Source of the DNA: an uncultured Arcobacteraceae bacterium
GTDB lineage: Bacteria; Campylobacterota; Campylobacteria; Campylobacterales; Arcobacteraceae
NCBI GenBank assembly: GCA_964022095.1
Contig: CAXHZO010000023.1
Span: forward strand, 1-34,834
Length of the DNA: 34,834 bases
Direction: 5' to 3'
Shown here in pieces: positions 20,344-28,344 of the stretch. The notes under the pieces are model-generated. The model was not told where the DNA came from and did no database searches. It saw nothing but the letters and a program-made list of their open reading frames with translations. A program made the translations under genes and the position numbers. How positions within the stretch are numbered: position 1 is the stretch's first letter; each line of letters starts with the position of its first letter.

Positions 20344-21222
20344 TTACTTATTACCATTACTTAAATATTCATGTGCAAGATATGAACTTCTTGCATATGG
20401 AGTACTATGTACAAACTCAAAACCTAAATCTAAAGCAATTTTTTTGTATCTTTCAAATTGCTCTGGCTTAACATACTCTAATACCTTTGCAAACTCTTTA
20501 GTTGGAGCTAAATATTGACCAATACTTAAAAATTTACAACCAACATCAATAAGATCTTTGAAAACCTGAACCATCTCTTCTTCTGTTTCACCAAGGCCAA
20601 CCATAAGTGCTGATTTAGTTTTGATTTTATCTCCACCTAGCTCTTTTAATCTTTTTAAAACATCTAAAGATCTTTGATATGTAGCACCTTTTCTAATTTT
20701 GTATAATCTTGGAACAGTTTCTATATTATGACCAATAATAACTGCACCTGAATCAACAACTTTTTTCAGTGAGTCATCATTTGCTTGAAAATCAGGAATA
20801 AGAATTTCAACTTGAGTGTCTTCTGTATTATTCAATATACTTTTTGTTACTTCATAAAAATGGTTTGCTCCCCCATCTTTTAAATCATCTCTAGCAGGAC
20901 TTGTAATTACTACAAATTTTAATCCAAGTTTTTGAACTGATAATGTGATTTGTTTAACTTCTTCTTCATTAACATATCCATTAGGATTACCTGTTTTAAC
21001 ATTACAATACTGACATCTTCTCGTACATAAATCACCTAAAATCATAAATGTTGCATTTTTCTTAGCAAAACATTCACTAATATTTGGGCACTTTGCTTCT
21101 TGACAAATAGTGTGTAATCCAGCATTATCAAGAAGTTTTTCCATCTCTTCTTGTGCTTTATTTGATAATTTCTTTCTAAGCCATACGGGTTTTTTAAATT
21201 CTATTTTATTATTTGCTGACAC
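20344..21222 (-). CDS. lipA: Lipoyl synthase
   Basis: CQEAKCPNISEC, CTRRCQYC, HNIETVPRL, GQYLAP, RSSY; GTG start. Confidence 0.97.
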   Translation of the reverse strand: MSANNKIEFKKPVWLRKKLSNKAQEEMEKLLDNAGLHTICQEAKCPNISECFAKKNATFMILGDLCTRRCQYCNVKTGNPNGYVNEEEVKQITLSVQKLGLKFVVITSPARDDLKDGGANHFYEVTKSILNNTEDTQVEILIPDFQANDDSLKKVVDSGAVIIGHNIETVPRLYKIRKGATYQRSLDVLKRLKELGGDKIKTKSALMVGLGETEEEMVQVFKDLIDVGCKFLSIGQYLAPTKEFAKVLEYVKPEQFERYKKIALDLGFEFVHSTPYARSSYLAHEYLSNGNK

Positions 21223-21939
21223 TTATTTTCCTTCTAATATTTTATTTAAATTTTCTTTTTCATTTTCTGTCAAATCTGATATTTTGAAATTTACATTAAA
21301 GCATTTTTCAAAAGCTTCTACTATTTTTTTCTGAGCTTCTTTTATATCTAAAACAATTCCTAAATCTTCTAAAGTAGATCCCATTAAAGAACTGTTATGT
21401 GTTTTGTATAGTGGTATAGAACCATGCTGAAAAATCAATTTACTTGTTCTTTTTTGAGCATTACCACCAATTTTTTTCCCATTAACAATAATATCATAGG
21501 CTTCAAACCCAACTTGACAAAAATCACTTTTCATTAAACTTATTTCTTTATTGTCTTTTACAAAAGATGGATTAAGACCTAATTCTTTGTAAAATGTTAA
21601 AAGAAATTGACAAATTCTTTCATAGGACTCTTTTACTCCAAGATTTTCTAGAACACTACTTGGAACTAGTAAACTATAAGAAATATCATGCCCATGAAAT
21701 AAAACACCACCTCCGGTGATTCTTTTTGAACAATTGTTGTTGTACTCTTCTTTAAACTCTTGATAATCATTTAAATCTTGACCTAAACCTATAGTAAAAG
21801 ATTTTTCCCACGAGTAAATTCTAAATACAATACTTTCTTCATTTTTAAATGAATTTACAAGTGCTTTATCAATAGCCATATTTTTTTTTGCGCTATTTGT
21901 ATTGGATAATATTAATCTTATTTCTTTATTTTCTAACAA
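21223..21939 (-). CDS. Lipoate-protein ligase A family protein, catalytic domain only (LipM-like octanoyltransferase candidate)
   Basis: NMAIDKAL, RITGGGVLFH, KKIGGNAQ, QHGSI; 238 aa with no LplA C-terminal domain. Confidence 0.88.
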   Translation of the reverse strand: MLENKEIRLILSNTNSAKKNMAIDKALVNSFKNEESIVFRIYSWEKSFTIGLGQDLNDYQEFKEEYNNNCSKRITGGGVLFHGHDISYSLLVPSSVLENLGVKESYERICQFLLTFYKELGLNPSFVKDNKEISLMKSDFCQVGFEAYDIIVNGKKIGGNAQKRTSKLIFQHGSIPLYKTHNSSLMGSTLEDLGIVLDIKEAQKKIVEAFEKCFNVNFKISDLTENEKENLNKILEGK

Positions 21940-22166: not shown

Positions 22167-24839
22167 ATGACAAAAGAGTTTTTAAATGATATTGATCCAG
22201 AAGAAACACTAGAATGGATTGAAGCCCTAGATGCAGTATTAGAAAAAGAGGGGCCAAAAAGAGCTCATTATCTTTTAGAGCAACTAATTGATAAGGCAAG
22301 AAGACGTGGTACTTATTTACCTTTTAAAACTACAACAGCATATTTAAATAGTATTGATGTTGATGATGAACCAAAAATGCCAGGTGATAGAGATATCGAG
22401 AAGAAAATTAGATCTGCTATTAGATGGAATGCAGCTATGATGGTACAAAGAGCTTCTAAGAAAAACTTAGAACTTGGTGGTCATATAGCATCTTTTCAAT
22501 CTTCTGCTACTTTATATGATGTAGGTTTTAACCACTTTTTTAGAGCACCAAATGAAAAAGATGGTGGAGATTTAGTATTTTATCAAGGGCATATATCTCC
22601 AGGTATATATGCAAGAAGTTTTGTTGAAGGTAGAATTACTGAAGCTCAAATGGATAACTTTAGACAAGAAGCTTTAGAAGATGGTTTATCTTCATACCCA
22701 CATCCAAAACTTATGCCAGAATATTGGCAGTTCCCAACAGTTTCTATGGGACTTGGACCAATACAAGCTATTTATCAAGCAAGATTTTTAAAATACTTAA
22801 CTGACAGAGGTATTAAAGATTGTAGTGAGCAAAAAGTATATTGTTACATGGGTGATGGTGAGTGTGATGAGCCAGAATCTTTAGGTGCAATTGGACTTGC
22901 AGGTAGAGAAGAATTAGATAACTTAGTATTTGTTATTAACTGTAACTTACAAAGACTTGATGGACCTGTAAGAGGAAATGGAAAAATAATCCAAGAACTT
23001 GAAGGAAACTTTAGAGGAAATGGTTGGAGAGTTGTTAAAGTTATTTGGGGTAGACACTGGGATGAACTATTAAGAAAAGATAAATCAGGTAAATTACTTC
23101 AATTAATGGAAGAGACTGTTGATGGTGAGTACCAAAACTTCAAACAAAAAGGTGGAGCTTACACAAGAGAGCATTTCTTTAATAAGTATCCAGAAACTGC
23201 AAAATTAGTTGAAAATATGTCTGATGATGAAATCAATGCATTAAATAGAGGTGGACATGATCCATTAAAAGTTTATGCAGCATATAAAGCAGCAGAAAAA
23301 ACAAAAGATAGACCAACTGTAATTTTAGCTAAAACTGTAAAAGGTTACGGAATGGGTGAAGCAGCTGAGGGTAAAAATATTGCTCACGGTGTTAAAAAAG
23401 TTGATGTTGATTCATTAAGACAATTTAGAGATAGATTTAGAATTCCATTTAATGATGAAGAGTTAGAAAAACTTCCATATTACACATTCTCTGAAGATTC
23501 ACCTGAAATGAAATATATGCGTGAGAGAAGAGAAGAGTTACATGGCCCACTTCCTCAAAGAAGACCAAAATTCACTGAGAAACTTGAAATTACTCCATTA
23601 GAAAAATTTAAACCAGTATTAGATGGAAGTGGAGATAGAGAAATTTCAACTACTATGGCATTTGTAAGAGTATTAAATGTTTTAGTAAAAGATAAAAAAA
23701 TTGGAAAAAGAATTGTTCCAATCGTTCCAGATGAAGCTAGAACATTTGGTATGGAAGGTATGTTTAGACAATTAGGTATCTACTCTTCAGAAGGTCAAAA
23801 ATATATTCCTCAAGATAGAGATCAAGTAGCATATTATAAAGAAGATAAAAAAGGACAAGTACTTCAAGAAGGTATTAATGAGCTTGGAGCAATGGGTTCT
23901 TGGGTAGCTGCAGCTACTTCATACTCAATTAATGATTGTCCTATGATTCCATTTTATATTTTCTACTCAATGTTTGGATTCCAAAGAACTGGCGATATTT
24001 GTTGGGCAGCAGGTGACCAAATGGCTAGAGGTTTCTTAGTTGGTGGAACATCAGGAAGAACAACATTAAATGGTGAAGGTTTACAACATGAAGATGGACA
24101 TTCACACATTATTGCTAATACAATTCCAAATTGTGTAACTTATGACCCAACATTCGGATATGAAGTTGCAGTTGTAGTTCAAAATGGTATTGAGAGAATG
24201 TATGGTGAAAACCAAGAAGATATTTTCTACTACATTACAACATTAAATGAAAATTATCAACAACCAGCAATGCCTGAAGGTGTTGAAGAGGGTATCTTAA
24301 AAGGTATTTACAAATATAAAACAATTGAATCTAAAAATAACTATAAAGTTAAATTATTAGGTTCTGGTTCTATTTTCCAACAAGTATTAGCAGCTGCTGA
24401 TGTTTTATCTAATGAGTATGGAATTGCATCTGAGATTTATTCTGTTACTTCATACAATGAGTTAACTAGACAAGCACAAGATGTTGAAAGAAACAACTTA
24501 TTAGATGTAGATAGTGAAGATAAGACTGCATATGTTGATGAAGTTTTAGGAAGTGATGATGAGAATATTATCATCTCTACAACAGATTATATGAAATCTT
24601 ACTCTGAGCAATTAGCTCCATTTGTAAAAGGTTCATTTAAAGCACTTGGTACTGATGGTTTTGGTAGATCAGATTCTAGAGCTAATTTAAGAAAGTTCTT
24701 TGAAGTTGATTCAGACTTTATTGTGTTTACAACTTTATCTCAATTATCAGATGCTGGAAAGATTGAAAAAACAGTTGTAAAAGAAGCTATGGCTAAATAT
24801 GGAATTGATGCAAATAAAATCAATCCAGTAAAAGCGTAA
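22167..24839 (+). CDS. aceE: Pyruvate dehydrogenase E1, homodimeric type
   Basis: DIDPEET.EW, LGGHIASFQSSA, GDGECDEPE TPP motif, GEGLQHEDG, LGTDGFGRSD. Confidence 0.98.
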   Translation: MTKEFLNDIDPEETLEWIEALDAVLEKEGPKRAHYLLEQLIDKARRRGTYLPFKTTTAYLNSIDVDDEPKMPGDRDIEKKIRSAIRWNAAMMVQRASKKNLELGGHIASFQSSATLYDVGFNHFFRAPNEKDGGDLVFYQGHISPGIYARSFVEGRITEAQMDNFRQEALEDGLSSYPHPKLMPEYWQFPTVSMGLGPIQAIYQARFLKYLTDRGIKDCSEQKVYCYMGDGECDEPESLGAIGLAGREELDNLVFVINCNLQRLDGPVRGNGKIIQELEGNFRGNGWRVVKVIWGRHWDELLRKDKSGKLLQLMEETVDGEYQNFKQKGGAYTREHFFNKYPETAKLVENMSDDEINALNRGGHDPLKVYAAYKAAEKTKDRPTVILAKTVKGYGMGEAAEGKNIAHGVKKVDVDSLRQFRDRFRIPFNDEELEKLPYYTFSEDSPEMKYMRERREELHGPLPQRRPKFTEKLEITPLEKFKPVLDGSGDREISTTMAFVRVLNVLVKDKKIGKRIVPIVPDEARTFGMEGMFRQLGIYSSEGQKYIPQDRDQVAYYKEDKKGQVLQEGINELGAMGSWVAAATSYSINDCPMIPFYIFYSMFGFQRTGDICWAAGDQMARGFLVGGTSGRTTLNGEGLQHEDGHSHIIANTIPNCVTYDPTFGYEVAVVVQNGIERMYGENQEDIFYYITTLNENYQQPAMPEGVEEGILKGIYKYKTIESKNNYKVKLLGSGSIFQQVLAAADVLSNEYGIASEIYSVTSYNELTRQAQDVERNNLLDVDSEDKTAYVDEVLGSDDENIIISTTDYMKSYSEQLAPFVKGSFKALGTDGFGRSDSRANLRKFFEVDSDFIVFTTLSQLSDAGKIEKTVVKEAMAKYGIDANKINPVKA

Positions 24840-24849
24840 GGAGTTAAAA

Positions 24850-26568
24850 ATGGCTAATATTGTAGATATTTTTATTCCTGATTTAGGTGCGGATAAAGAT
24901 GTAGATTTAATTGAGATTATGGTTGAAGTTGGTGATAGTGTTGAAGAAGAAGATGGTTTAATCACACTTGAAACAGAAAAAGCTTCTATGGATGTTCCTA
25001 CAACTCATGGTGGAATTGTAAAAGAGATTTTAGTAAAAGTTGGTGATAAAGTGAACTCTGGTGATTTAATTGCTAGAGTTGAAGTTGCTGATGAAGAAAG
25101 TTCTGAAGCTCCTGCTGAAAAAGTAGAAGAATCAAAAGAAGAAACACCTGCTCCAGCAGTTACAACTTCTTCAAACTCATCAAGTGAGGGTGATTTAAAA
25201 GCAGCTCAAGCTGAATTAGAAGCTATTAGTGCAAGTGGTGCTGAGGTTTCTTGTCAATTTGTAAATGAACAAACAATTTGTACTGTAATTGAAGAAATTC
25301 ATATTCCTGATTTAGGTGATGATAAAGATGTTGACCTAATTGAAGTTATGGTAGAAGTTGGTGAAACAGTTGCAATTGAACAAGGATTAGTTACATTAGA
25401 AACTGAAAAAGCTTCTATGGAAGTTCCAGCACCTCATGGTGGTGAAATTTTAGAATTATATGTTGAAGCTGGAATGAAAGTAAATAGTGGTGATTTAGTT
25501 TGTAAAATGACTAAAACAGTAGTTGTGGAATCAAAAAAACCCACACCAACAGCAGCAGTTGAAGAGAAAAAAGAAGAGAAAAAAGCACCTGTAACAGTAC
25601 AAGAAGTAGCAGCAACTTCTGCTCCTGTTGCAAATGCAGTATTAACTGAAAAATCTTCAAAAGTTTATGCCTCTCCATCAGTTAGAAAAGTAGCACGTGA
25701 GTTTGGAGTTGATTTAGGGTTTGTAAAAGGAAGTGGTAGAAAAGGAAGAATTCTTAAAGATGATATTAAAGCTTATGTAAAAGAGCAATTATCTAAACCA
25801 GCAGTTGCTGCCTCAAATGGTGGTAGCGGTCTTGGATTTAACTTACCAGAAGCAAAAGAGATTGACTTTAGTCAGTTTGGTGATACTGAGACTGTTGAGT
25901 TAAGTAGAATTCAAAAAATTTCTGGTCCATCATTACATAGAAATGCATTGGCTATGCCACATGTTACTCAGTTTGATGAAGCAGATATTACAGAAATGGA
26001 AAGCTTTAGAAAAGCACAAAATACAATTGCAGATGATTATAAATTATCTCCATTAGTGTTTGTATTAAAAGCTGTTGCAAAAGCATTAGAGATTCATCCT
26101 AAGTTTAATACATCATTAACACCAGATGGACAAAGTTTAGTTTATAAAAAATATTTCCATATTGCTGTTGCAGTTGATACTCCTAATGGATTAATGGTTC
26201 CTGTAATTAGAGATGTTGATAAAAAAGGTTTCAAGCAAATAGCTCTTGAATTAAAAGAGATTTCACAAAAAGCTAGAGATGGAAAACTAAAATCAACAGA
26301 CATGCAAGGTGCTTGTTTTACAATTTCAAGTCTTGGTGGTATTGGTGGTACTAAGTTTACTCCAATTATTAATGCTCCTGAAGTTGCAATTTTAGGTTTA
26401 TCAAAATCTGAAATGAAACCAGTTTGGGATGGTGAAAACTTTATTCCAAGATTGATGTTACCATTATCTTTATCTTATGACCACAAGGTTATAGATGGTG
26501 CAGATGGTGCAAGATTTACAACAACTTTATCTAAGCTTTTAAGCGATATTAGATTATTAAATTTATAA
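24850..26568 (+). CDS. aceF: Dihydrolipoamide acetyltransferase E2 with two lipoyl domains
   Basis: Two ETEKASM lipoyl domains, ASPSVRKVARE...GSGRKGRI binding domain, DHKVIDGA catalytic motif. Confidence 0.97.
   Translation: MANIVDIFIPDLGADKDVDLIEIMVEVGDSVEEEDGLITLETEKASMDVPTTHGGIVKEILVKVGDKVNSGDLIARVEVADEESSEAPAEKVEESKEETPAPAVTTSSNSSSEGDLKAAQAELEAISASGAEVSCQFVNEQTICTVIEEIHIPDLGDDKDVDLIEVMVEVGETVAIEQGLVTLETEKASMEVPAPHGGEILELYVEAGMKVNSGDLVCKMTKTVVVESKKPTPTAAVEEKKEEKKAPVTVQEVAATSAPVANAVLTEKSSKVYASPSVRKVAREFGVDLGFVKGSGRKGRILKDDIKAYVKEQLSKPAVAASNGGSGLGFNLPEAKEIDFSQFGDTETVELSRIQKISGPSLHRNALAMPHVTQFDEADITEMESFRKAQNTIADDYKLSPLVFVLKAVAKALEIHPKFNTSLTPDGQSLVYKKYFHIAVAVDTPNGLMVPVIRDVDKKGFKQIALELKEISQKARDGKLKSTDMQGACFTISSLGGIGGTKFTPIINAPEVAILGLSKSEMKPVWDGENFIPRLMLPLSLSYDHKVIDGADGARFTTTLSKLLSDIRLLNL
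24859..25087 (+). repeat. Lipoyl-domain repeat, copy in aceF; near-identical to 26587-26815
   Basis: 229-nt gap-free direct repeat, 5 amino-acid differences in 76. Confidence 0.9.
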
Positions 26569-26577
26569 GGAATAAAC

Positions 26578-28336
26578 ATGAGTAAAATTGTAGATATAAC
26601 TATTCCTGATTTAGGTGCAGATAAAGATGTAGATTTAATTGAAGTAATGGTTGAAATTGGTGATAGCGTTGAAGAAGAAGATGGACTTATTACACTTGAA
26701 ACTGAAAAAGCTTCAATGGATGTTCCAACAACTCATAGTGGAGTTGTAAAAGAGATTTTAGTAAAAGTTGGTGATAAAGTAAACTCTGGTGATTTAATCG
26801 CTAGAGTTGAAGTTGAAGAAGAGGGTGCTTTAGAAACTCCTGCTGCTGCAGCTGAAACAAAAGAAGAAACTTCTACAGCAAAACCACAAGCAACTGAAGT
26901 TTCTGTATCTTCTGATGCAAGTGAAGTAAAAGGTCAAGTATTAGTAATAGGTGCAGGACCTGGTGGTTATTCTGCTGCATTTAGATGTGCTGACTTGGGA
27001 TTAGATACTGTACTTGTTGAGAGACACTCAACTCTAGGTGGAGTTTGTTTAAATGTTGGATGTATTCCTTCAAAAGCACTTTTACATGTTGCTAAAGTTA
27101 TCGAAGAAGCTGAGCATATTAATCATGCAGGAATTAAGTTTGGTAATCCTCAAATTGATTTACCAGGAGTTGCAGCTTATAAATCAGGAGTTGTAAAAAA
27201 ACTTACTGATGGATTATCTGGTATGGCTAAAATGAGAAATGTTAAAGTTATCCAAGGTGTTGCAAACTTTATTGATGAAAAGAACGTAATTGTTGATGGT
27301 GCAGATGGAAAACAAACAAAAATAACTTTTGATAATTGTATTATTGCAGCTGGTTCTCAAAGCTCTAAAATGTCATTCATTCCACATGAAGATCCAAGAA
27401 TTTGGGATTCAACTAATGCTTTAGAAGTAAAAGAAGTTCCTAAGAAAATGTTAATTATGGGTGGTGGTATTATTGGACTTGAAATGGGTACAGTTTACCA
27501 AAAACTTGGAAGTGAAGTTGATGTTGTAATTAGAGGTCCTCAAGTTATGACTGGAACTGATAAAGATATTGTAAAAGTTTATACTAAAGCAAATGAAGAT
27601 AGATTTAATTTCATGTTTAAAACTCAAACACAAGCTATTATTCCTAAAGAAGATGGTATCTATGTTGAGTTTAAAGGTGATAATGCACCTGAACCACAAA
27701 TGTATGATGCCGTTTTAGTTGCTATGGGTAGAACTCCAAATGGACTAAAAATTGGTTTAGAAAATACTGGTGTTGAAGTTGATGATAAAGGCTTTATTTC
27801 AGTTGATAATCAAATGAGAACAAAAGTTTCTCATATTTTTGCAATTGGAGATATTATTGGTGGACCAATGTTAGCACATAAAGCTGTTCATGAAGGTCAT
27901 GTGGCAGCTGAAGTAATTGCAGGTCATAAAGTATTCTTTGAACCTAAACAAATTCCAGGAATTGCATATACATTCCCAGAAATTGCAACAGCAGGTCTTA
28001 GCGAAATAGAAGCTAAAGAGCAAGGTATTAATTATGAAGTGTCATCTTTCCCTTGGGCAGCTTCAGGTAGAGCATTAGCAGCAGATGTTGCAGGTGCAGG
28101 TATGACAAAACTTATCTTTGATAAAGATACTCACCAATTAATTGGTGGAGCAATTGTTGGAGATAATGCAGGTGAATTACTAGGTGAAATTTCACTAGCA
28201 CTTGAAATGGATTGTGATGCGGAAGATATTGGATTAACAATTCATGCTCACCCAACACTACATGAATCAGTAGGTATGTGTGCAGAGATTTTCCATGGAA
28301 GTATTACAGACCTTCCAAATCCAAAAGCTGTAAAGA

Positions 28337-28344
<8 letters not shown>
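26578..28344 (+). CDS. lpdA: Dihydrolipoamide dehydrogenase E3 with N-terminal lipoyl domain
   Basis: Lipoyl domain, GAGPGG, GGVCLNVGCIPSK, GGGIIGLE, HAHPTLHE. Confidence 0.97.
26587..26815 (+). repeat. Lipoyl-domain repeat, copy in lpdA
   Basis: Direct repeat of 24859-25087. Confidence 0.9.

Follow-up and report, generated by a model that had tools for sequence, protein, structure and literature searches.

Dihydrolipoyl dehydrogenases (E3) normally carry a Glu at the end of strand beta2, which forms hydrogen bonds with the ribose hydroxyls in the adenosine half of NAD+, while a 2'-phosphate is repelled by it. The NADP-dependent pyruvate dehydrogenases (PDH) known to us are all E. coli enzymes, obtained by engineering or by evolution in the laboratory. 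Natural NADP-using lipoamide dehydrogenases have reportedly been found in anaerobic glycine and purine fermenters, and these serve glycine-cleavage or glycine-reductase systems, not a PDH complex; as E3s accepting NADP(H), they resemble what is predicted below for LpdA. Pyruvate oxidation is also said to yield NADPH in Helicobacter and Campylobacter, by the PFOR-flavodoxin-FqrB route. That route belongs to the same phylum as LpdA, but the analogy is a physiological one only, the proteins being unrelated and the chemistry oxygen-sensitive.

Among the closest described relatives is the E. coli enzyme, Lpd, which is common to several complexes, as stated for PDH and OGDH by Bouzon et al. (2021; PMC8406311). 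The same paper gives no activity with NADP+ and a kcat/KM of 830 with NAD+ for wild-type Lpd, as against 12.8 (NAD+) and 7.8 (NADP+) for E205G, and 5.4 and 6.5, respectively, for E205A. Loss of E205 lowers NAD+ efficiency 65- to 150-fold, and the E205 single mutants are dual rather than NADP-specific (ratio 0.6–1.9); the laboratory-evolved single mutants are slow (kcat/KM 6.5–10.6), and a five-change variant has a 100-fold preference for NADP+ (PMC8406311). An NADPH-auxotrophic E. coli delta-maeA delta-lpd strain is presented in that paper as a stringent selection host for oxidoreductases specific to NADP+. Because of the E205G and E205A kinetics, an E3 without the beta2 Glu is expected to be a poor NAD+ enzyme unless the loss is compensated. 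According to a table in PMC5817062, the NADP-directed redesign of Lpd by Bocanegra et al. (1993) consisted of E205V, M206R, F207K, D208H and P212R, and the redesign of glutathione reductase (Gor) of A179G, A183G, V197E, R198M, K199F, H200D and R204P.

In literature searches of sources other than subscription journals and old scans, neither a natural NADP-linked PDH complex nor any comment on the coenzyme use of Arcobacter Lpd was found. Papers matching an NADP+-dependent pyruvate dehydrogenase either cited the 1993 engineering work or, by title, apparently concerned the eukaryotic pyruvate:NADP+ oxidoreductase. Published accounts, Arcobacter genome papers included, present the PDH complex as a source of NADH (PMC3958643, PMC5495459, PMC2147049).

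Organization of the PDH operon

The window, meaning the whole stretch of DNA analysed (34,834 nt), contains a contiguous operon in the order aceE-aceF-lpdA, with lpdA as its last gene. The features referred to below are:

20344..21939, minus strand: lipoylation genes, two ORFs divergent from the PDH operon
20344..21222, minus strand: radical-SAM protein, likely lipoyl synthase (Pfam Radical_SAM 2.1e-23; the lipA call is by position only)
21223..21939, minus strand: LplA/LipB-family ligase or octanoyltransferase (Pfam LplA-B_cat 3.1e-23)
22167..24839, plus strand: aceE, homodimeric-type pyruvate dehydrogenase E1, 890 aa (Pfam PDH_E1_M 3.9e-110, Transketolase_N, Transketolase_C_1)
24850..26568, plus strand: aceF, E2 acetyltransferase, 572 aa (Pfam 2-oxoacid_dh 2.7e-78, two Biotin_lipoyl, E3_binding)
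26578..28344, plus strand: lpdA, dihydrolipoyl dehydrogenase (E3) with N-terminal lipoyl domain, 588 aa (ORF translation, profile matches)
26593..26805, plus strand: lipoyl domain of LpdA, residues 6–76, with the ETEKA lipoyl-lysine motif at 41–45 (Pfam Biotin_lipoyl 8.3e-18)
27046..27063, plus strand: CLNVGC, residues 157–162 (motif position in LpdA), which we take to be the redox-active E3 disulfide
27364..27762, plus strand: NAD(P)-binding domain, residues 263–395, with boundaries transferred from E. coli Lpd 150–282, which we take to be the corresponding domain
27460..27565, plus strand: dinucleotide fingerprint and beta2 loop, GGGIIG (295–300)...VDVV-I318-R319-G320-P321-QVM-T325-GTDKD (translation)
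27529..27534, plus strand: I318-R319, candidate coenzyme-specificity pair, aligned with E. coli Lpd E205-M206 and Gor V197-R198
28249..28266, plus strand: HPTLHE, residues 558–563 (hand count on the translation), identical to HPTLHE of E. coli Lpd when aligned and presumably the His...Glu acid-base pair of E3

The lpdA gene encodes a genuine E3. LpdA scores 465.8 bits against NCBIfam TIGR01350, whose curated equivalog cut-off is 408.8, with all other families scored falling under their respective cut-offs, and its Pfam matches are Pyr_redox_2 (1.1e-62), Pyr_redox_dim (6.7e-31) and Biotin_lipoyl, the E3 part spanning residues 120–565. Over this part it is 67% identical to E. coli Lpd (PDB 4jdr/4jq9; E = 8.5e-207), with which it shares the FAD fingerprint, CLNVGC, HPTLHE and the gene order. 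In an alignment with E. coli Lpd, Gor and SthA, one Cys column of CLNVGC (C44 in the first row) and K53 are invariant. Unlike E. coli Lpd, LpdA has an additional lipoyl domain at its N-terminus, and in this lipoyl-linker-E3 architecture it resembles Neisseria P64k (PDB 1ojt/1bhy; 5u25). The fusion of lipoyl domain and E3 is evident from the alignment of 5u25 with LpdA residues 4–583 (E = 3.5e-198); the Neisseria loop, however, reads VVEMMDGLMQGAD and is of the NAD type, unlike that of LpdA.

The partner of LpdA is AceF, which comprises two lipoyl domains, an E3-binding domain (Pfam E3_binding 6e-15) and a catalytic domain. The E2 catalytic family PF00198 has a single match genome-wide, which is aceF itself, and no GcvH was found above the cut-off in a profile search of the genome. 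With one E2 and no GcvH above the cut-off, the loop change touches PDH alone, whereas E. coli Lpd serves several complexes. The divergent lipoylation genes, with the radical-SAM gene likely encoding the lipoyl synthase, would supply the cofactor for the E2 and for the lipoyl domain of LpdA.

Coenzyme loop of LpdA

Positions 27460–27565 encode GGGIIGLEMGTVYQKLGSEVDVVIRGPQVMTGTDKD, which the initial annotation had read as an NADP-type fingerprint, and the particulars on which it relied hold up. I318 (codon 27529–27531) lies 23 residues past G295 when counted on the translation, as had been claimed, with R319 encoded by 27532–27534 and VDVVIRGP beginning at residue 314. The E. coli E3 string that had been given for comparison is borne out by alignment to PDB 4jdr and, independently, to the K-12 lpd gene taken by accession. 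The residue mapping is secure because of the identity of LpdA to a solved E3, and places I318, R319, G320, P321 and T325 on E205, M206, F207, D208 and P212 of E. coli Lpd, and on V197, R198, K199, H200 and R204 of E. coli Gor. Both acidic residues of the E. coli loop are absent, as had been noted, E205 being replaced by I318 and D208 by P321. Members of the E3 family usually have an acidic residue where beta2 ends, a feature that does not enter into the definition of the TIGR01350 model.

The five mapped positions are exactly those exchanged in both the Lpd and the Gor redesigns. The Ile-Arg pair matches two of the five exchanges of the engineered NADP-dependent E. coli PDH, E205V and M206R, which are indeed, as had been stated, among those tabulated (PMC5817062). 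LpdA is NADP-like at only two of the seven classical NADP positions. Where beta2 ends, its hydrophobic residue and the Arg that follows match V197-R198 of the NADPH-dependent glutathione reductase column for column, as had been proposed, and I318 stands in place of the acidic residue that marks the C-terminus of this strand in NAD+-type enzymes. The second Arg six residues on (Gor R204) is T325 in LpdA, the basic K199 and H200 correspond to G320 and P321, which are neither basic nor E3-like, and in place of A179 and A183 (GxGxxA and the Ala four residues later) LpdA retains G300 and G304, the latter in LEMG. Retention of GxGxxG and the Thr at the position of the second Arg had been named as signs against an NADP site, and both are present.

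Like the engineered and evolved NADP+-accepting forms of E. coli Lpd, LpdA has E205 replaced by a small or hydrophobic residue, and R319 equals M206R exactly. Those enzymes, however, are artificial and carry one to five changes, in contrast to the ∼34 clade-specific substitutions of the LpdA clade, and the redesigned K-H-...-R reads G-P-...-T in LpdA, in a form kept clade-wide by selection. Gor, on the other hand, is only 26% identical to LpdA overall and has a different disulfide substrate, and LpdA lacks equivalents of its K199, H200 and R204, although some relatives of LpdA have acquired equivalents of A179, A183 or R204.

Distribution and origin of the Ile-Arg pair

The motif [IV]-R-G was present in all of the 120 best database homologues of LpdA, with the Arg invariant. 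In a family sample of 151 genomes, 82 had an E3 orthologue (one per genome); 61 of these were of the Ile-Arg (IR) type and the remaining 21 had E-M (EM type), and every one of the 61 IR-type genomes had Arg at the R319 position. Poseidonibacter ostreae, Halarcobacter ebronensis and Malaciobacter pacificus are among the cultivable carriers of the IR type. Alignment across relatives had been suggested initially as a check on clade conservation, and the pair is conserved in both sets: [IV]-R-G is neither a chance nor a private variant, but is fixed in the clade. These genome counts overstate the number of events, because related genomes are not independent and the change is a single one. More widely, an acidic residue (Glu or Asp) occupies the I318 position in 145 of 150 diverse E3-like cluster representatives; the other five lack it, so far as is known without consequence. 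P0224, P0238 and P0263, three diverse E3-like representatives that read x-R here, score above the TIGR01350 cut-off and lie closest to the Bacillus-type E3 1ebd.

The IR-type E3s form one clade with a support of 100. Support remained at 100 after removal of columns 295–331 and was 100/100 when a careful tree was built under a mixture model with Gammaproteobacteria as the root. Glu is found in E. coli and in all 40 loci bearing gammaproteobacterial titles. As this clade is nested among E-type sequences, the IR state arose once. Its stem, at 0.33, is the longest internal branch. Both types of lpd lie within aceE-aceF-lpd, as the third gene in every locus examined; the lipoyl domain is missing from many IR-type E3s, whose matches start at query residue 112–116.

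The change is not confined to the loop. Residue sets of IR- and EM-type E3s are disjoint at 34 positions, 25 of which fall within the NAD(P) domain (9.5 expected), so that clade-specific substitutions are concentrated in that domain. Lpd identity is 5–12 points under AceE identity in cross-type pairs, but from 1.6 points below to 9.4 above it in same-type pairs. Taken with the concentration in the NAD(P) domain, this indicates that the remodelling is specific to E3.

Within the IR clade, sequences of some members appear to drift further toward NADP features. Both Gor-like Ala residues (GxGxxA and LEMA) occur in two loci (L052 and L053), and GxGxxA together with the second Arg in another sequence (P0116). 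Among the 120 best homologues, LEMA alone is found in six and the second Arg in five, the latter also in L178 and L195 (VVRGKQLMRG). Position 321 is Lys in some relatives (VRGK) and, as a point against an NADP site, Glu in one IR subclade (IRGE). No reversion to Glu at position 318 was seen among the IR-type sequences examined.

Gene content

The genome carrying LpdA encodes G6PD, a monomeric IDH and malic enzyme, as well as two POR/OOR-type enzymes. Compensation for missing NADPH sources was considered as a reason for the IR type and rejected, since G6PD, present in 25 of the 61 IR-type genomes but in only 3 of the 21 of EM type, shows the opposite pattern. The structural side of the initial interpretation, an NADP-type site, is supported, but the suggestion that it serves NADPH supply finds no support in gene content, because other NADPH sources are present and G6PD does not track the E3 type. 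PntB was found in only 1 of the 151 family genomes, whose completeness is 85%, and there as a fragment, so it cannot separate the E3 types.

Campylobacter and Helicobacter, to our knowledge, lack NuoF. In the LpdA genome and in carriers of both E3 types there is a NuoF-like ORF that scores ∼490–530 bits, short of the curated cut-off (558.65), and respiration of NADH would be possible with it; its presence in carriers of both types led us to reject the absence of an NADH sink as the reason for the IR type. A second, NAD-type E3 in the LpdA genome was likewise rejected, the sole other relative being 29% identical and having an NADP-like V-R-S-Q-R loop.

Coenzyme use by LpdA

The pyridine-nucleotide pocket of LpdA appears to have been rebuilt to the NADP type, with Glu changed to Ile (Val in relatives), followed by Arg, and with the Asp lost. 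Serving solely the PDH complex encoded alongside it, LpdA would reoxidise dihydrolipoyl-E2 with NADP+, preferentially or about equally with NAD+, and if it does, pyruvate oxidation in the IR clade would yield NADPH. Judged from the residues, we regard it as fairly likely that LpdA works no less well with NADP+ than with NAD+, and its complex probably makes NADPH. We infer that Arg319 would bind the 2'-phosphate and that NADP+ would be the acceptor in vivo.

It is possible, though unlikely, that the E3 is dual-specific and that the loss of Glu merely relaxed its specificity, in which case NAD+ would be the main acceptor in vivo and mostly NADH would be made. The cellular NAD+ pool is much larger than that of NADP+; moreover, LpdA retains GxGxxG without the second Arg, the genome encodes a NuoF-like protein and has further sources of NADPH, and E. 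coli E205G and E205A perform about equally with both coenzymes (PMC8406311). Nevertheless, a 65- to 150-fold loss of NAD+ efficiency is unlikely to be tolerated clade-wide without some gain, Arg319 is invariant across the IR-type sequences examined, and within the clade more NADP-type residues arise while Glu is never regained. The E3 could also still be NAD+-specific, with the loop serving, for example, weaker NADH inhibition in microaerobic growth, or being a neutral relic of the fast stem. Coenzyme choice is not always predicted by sequence fingerprints, five of the 150 diverse representatives also lack the acidic residue, and gene content offers no correlate of an NADPH role. We nonetheless find this improbable, given that the substituted residues are those of an NADPH enzyme in the same columns and the same superfamily, that the surplus substitutions cluster in the NAD(P) domain, and that removal of the Glu was experimentally sufficient for NADP+ use (PMC8406311); nor is an invariant Arg expected of a neutral relic.

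The fused lipoyl domain of LpdA, and NADPH being the usual reductant among its disulfide-reductase relatives, would also fit an enzyme that runs mainly backwards, reducing lipoyl groups with NADPH and using its own lipoyl domain to shuttle dithiols for antioxidant purposes or other disulfide reduction, with PDH as a secondary role. We consider this very improbable, as many IR-type E3s have no lipoyl domain, lpd is always third in aceE-aceF-lpd in the loci examined, and the E2 carries an E3-binding domain.

Implications

The use of NADP+ by LpdA may be part of a wider history, which we put forward tentatively and at somewhat less than even confidence: a PDH operon acquired from Gammaproteobacteria, whose E3 was converted once, by a burst of change in the nucleotide domain, would have given rise to a clade-wide NADP+-preferring PDH, retained by most PDH-bearing Arcobacteraceae and transferred to at least one Sulfurospirillum-labelled genome. 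If true, this would be a dated coenzyme switch of single origin after horizontal transfer, with both sister types available for comparison in the same operon. Metabolic engineering would gain as well: an E3 tuned by nature could supply NADPH to engineered strains and act as an optimised template for NADPH-producing PDH. For the phylum, such a complex would be an oxygen-tolerant counterpart of the NADPH-linked PFOR-flavodoxin-FqrB route, and metabolic models and flux readings would change for Arcobacteraceae, including the food- and water-borne species.

The pyruvate dehydrogenase operon

The genes aceE, aceF and lpdA form a compact operon on the + strand of the window, with two divergent genes upstream that are probably a lipoylation pair.

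Genes of the pyruvate dehydrogenase (PDH) region
20344-21939, - strand: LplA/LipB-family gene and radical-SAM gene (probably lipoyl synthase), divergent, upstream of the PDH operon
22167..24839, + strand: aceE; Pfam PDH E1 domains
24850..26568, + strand: aceF; Pfam two lipoyl domains, E3-binding domain and acyltransferase core
26578..28344, + strand: lpdA; Pfam lipoyl domain (6-76), then full flavoprotein disulfide reductase (120-565)

LpdA is a member of the dihydrolipoyl dehydrogenase (E3) family on all structural criteria tested. It passes the NCBIfam equivalog TIGR01350 (465.8 bits, cut-off 408.8), was above the cut-off in no other NCBIfam family scored, shares 67% identity with E. coli Lpd across the E3 part, and carries the CLNVGC disulfide (residues 157-162) and the HPTLHE motif. 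The Neisseria proteins 1ojt, 1bhy and 5u25 have the same lipoyl-E3 architecture. The sole family feature that it lacks is the usual NAD+-type signature, in place of which there is I318 and no acidic residue. The genome, 99.99% complete, encodes no E2 besides AceF and has no GcvH above its cut-off, and LpdA therefore serves PDH alone. The lipoylation genes beside the operon, together with the single E2, look like a self-contained lipoyl-PDH module.

The coenzyme loop

The initial annotation, which proposed an NADP-type site in LpdA, had read GGGIIG at residues 295-300 and the loop VDVV-I318-R319-G320-P321-QVM-T325-GTDKD, and this reading is exact, with window coordinates 27460-27565 coding for residues 295-330. 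Residues were mapped through two independent alignments, to PDB 4jdr and to K-12 lpd, gor and sthA (by accession), both of which bear out that the acidic residues of E. coli E3 at these sites (E205 = I318, D208 = P321) are absent from LpdA.

Equivalent residues at the seven coenzyme columns
LpdA G300: E. coli Lpd G187, E. coli Gor A179
LpdA G304: E. coli Lpd G191, E. coli Gor A183
LpdA I318: E. coli Lpd E205, E. coli Gor V197
LpdA R319: E. coli Lpd M206, E. coli Gor R198
LpdA G320: E. coli Lpd F207, E. coli Gor K199
LpdA P321: E. coli Lpd D208, E. coli Gor H200
LpdA T325: E. coli Lpd P212, E. coli Gor R204

Both classical redesigns, as their table rows in PMC5817062 give them, swapped residues among these same columns (Gor: A179G A183G V197E R198M K199F H200D R204P; Lpd: E205V M206R F207K D208H P212R). 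The portion of that source on Rossmann folds describes how an acidic residue ending beta2 binds the ribose hydroxyls and repels a 2'-phosphate, its place being taken by basic residues in NADP enzymes (PMC5817062). Two columns of LpdA (I318, R319) are NADP-like, G300 and G304 are NAD-like, and the remaining three resemble neither type. Its likeness to the NADPH site of E. coli glutathione reductase covers the central pair and stops short of the full seven-residue pattern.

The same genome encodes a flavoprotein disulfide reductase paralogue of 435 aa (L002, C3:196281-197585, - strand), 26-29% identical to LpdA, with a GxGxxA fingerprint and an NADP-like V-R-S-Q-R loop. This paralogue reaches the curated threshold in none of the NCBIfam families scored, its best result being NF004947 at 352.5, where 592 is required.

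Conservation and distribution

The Ile-Arg pair, whose conservation in the clade the initial annotation had left to be established, is conserved as [IV]-R-G (IR type) in 120/120 best matches (78-100% identity) from a collection of 5.8 billion proteins. Among 151 sampled Arcobacteraceae genomes a match was found in 88, six of them having only a 28-34% identical paralogue; all 82 orthologues were read individually, 61 being IR type and 21 carrying E-M-[QL]-D...P (EM type), the latter 66-71% identical to LpdA. In both types lpd is the third gene of aceE-aceF-lpd (the window and one other IR locus, three EM loci).

By comparison, E or D occupies the beta2 position in 145 of 150 diverse representatives (50%-identity clusters), and Glu in all 40 gammaproteobacterial-titled loci among the 80 nearest genome loci. 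An E3 orthologue was found in only 19 of the 401 genomes of a phylum sample, one being the window's own, a further 17 coming from the 23 other Arcobacteraceae genomes and the last from another family. This wider distribution is consistent with the grouping of Arcobacter type-I PDH with Gammaproteobacteria, as stated in the relevant part of PMC3958643.

An IR-type LpdA of 80% identity is labelled as from a Dysnectes brevis transcriptome (P0084, EukProt), its source most likely being an associated or contaminating Arcobacteraceae bacterium. The five diverse representatives without an acidic beta2 residue are P0224, P0238, P0263, P0193 and P0229, four of which pass TIGR01350, with P0229 missing it (407.1 against 408.8). 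The first three have x-R at this position and Bacillus-type E3 1ebd as their nearest solved structure, and may be independent NADP-type E3s. NADP-accepting E3s are also known from anaerobic glycine fermenters, and these three clusters may belong to that kind of E3.

Evolution of the IR type

Three trees were built: a quick tree, the same without the fingerprint columns (query 295-331), and a careful mixture-model tree also without them. The quick tree held 78 of the 82 orthologues and 10 representatives, leaving out three partial sequences, L057 and the paralogue L087 (not among the 82). One branch (SH-aLRT 100, stem 0.25) separates all 58 IR rows, a grouping unchanged when the columns are dropped. 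In the mixture-model tree (18 of 61 IR sequences plus L195, 9 of 21 EM, and 12 of 40 gammaproteobacterial loci with E. coli), Arcobacteraceae E3s form a clade (100/99) at whose base the EM lineages take no settled order, and within which the IR clade (100/100) has the longest internal branch (stem 0.33). Every outgroup carries Glu, which makes the IR state a derived one with a single origin.

L195, from a genome of another family in the same order (G397), falls within the IR clade, its terminal branch being long (0.27), and this placement points to a probable horizontal transfer out of Arcobacteraceae. It matches L178, from a record titled MAG: Sulfurospirillum sp.; L178/L195 is the sole E3 orthologue outside Arcobacteraceae in the 401-genome sample, and its loop, VVRGKQLMRG, is the most completely NADP-like. 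Elsewhere in the clade, L052/L053 combine GxGxxA with LEMA, and P0116 has GxGxxA and the second Arg. LEMA occurs in 6 and the second Arg in 5 of the 120 best matches, the latter also in L178/L195, and a return of Glu was seen in no IR-clade sequence examined.

The IR/EM divergence is specific to the E3. Across five operons, Lpd identity lies 5-12 points under AceE identity in cross-type pairs, compared with 1.6 points below to 9.4 above it in same-type pairs. Residue sets are disjoint between 58 IR and 20 EM rows at 34 alignment positions, of which 25 fall in residues 263-395, presumably the NAD(P) domain by transfer of its limits from E. coli Lpd 150-282, against 9.5 expected (hypergeometric P ~1e-8, descriptive only because the rows are kin).

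Some IR-type E3s (~585-604 aa) have the N-terminal lipoyl domain and others (~475-480 aa) do not, and all 21 EM-type E3s are without it, which implies a gain or loss of the domain inside the IR clade.

Coenzyme use and its alternatives

With the Glu missing clade-wide, the adjacent Arg invariant and a burst of substitutions in the nucleotide domain, E3s of the LpdA type would most simply have been selected to bind NADP+. On this sequence evidence LpdA probably uses NADP+ at least as efficiently as NAD+, and a strict preference for NADP+ is conceivable, though we lean slightly away from it. Counting against an NADP reading are the Glu at position 321 in one IR subclade, the lack of a Lys/His pair, and the retained GxGxxG and missing second Arg, the last two having been raised by the initial annotation and upheld by alignment (G300, T325).

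Loss of the Glu has been selected before, NADPH-auxotrophic E. coli having repeatedly yielded Lpd E205G or E205A (PMC8406311). In Table 3 of that paper, wild-type Lpd has a kcat/KM of 830 with NAD+ and no activity with NADP+, and E205G has 12.8 and 7.8, respectively; a five-change engineered Lpd is described there with a 100-fold preference for NADP+. A dual-specific E3 with NAD+ dominant in vivo, for which the E205G values offer a likeness, is rather unlikely given the invariant Arg. Retention of NAD+ specificity, with the loop serving another purpose, appears less likely still beside the clade-wide loss of Glu. An E3 running in reverse as an NADPH-driven lipoyl reductase is very improbable for the third gene of a PDH operon.

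A further point against an NADP-linked PDH is that gene content (PntB, G6PD, other enzymes, NuoF-like) revealed no physiological motive for it. PntB was matched in 1 of 151 family genomes, by a fragment of 95 positions, and that genome is 85% complete; G6PD is commoner with the IR type (25/61 genomes against 3/21 for EM), the window's genome also encodes monomeric IDH, malic enzyme and POR/OOR-type enzymes, and a NuoF-like gene was found alongside both types. In at least three genera (g8, g9 and g15) where PDH E3 matches are rare or absent, most genomes have only weak NuoF-like matches (E ~1e-17), and PDH-bearing genera have strong ones (E ~1e-150); PDH and the NuoF-like gene seem to co-occur across Arcobacteraceae.

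The NADP-accepting E3s in the relevant parts of PMC5817062 and PMC8406311 are variants of the E. coli enzyme obtained by engineering or evolution. Searches of the open-access literature turned up neither a natural PDH complex linked to NADP nor the NADP-type E3 feature in Arcobacteraceae, the latter in keeping with the initial impression that it was undescribed there. Arcobacter genome papers, in the parts that concern PDH, treat it as ordinary or NADH-producing (PMC3958643, PMC5495459, PMC2147049).
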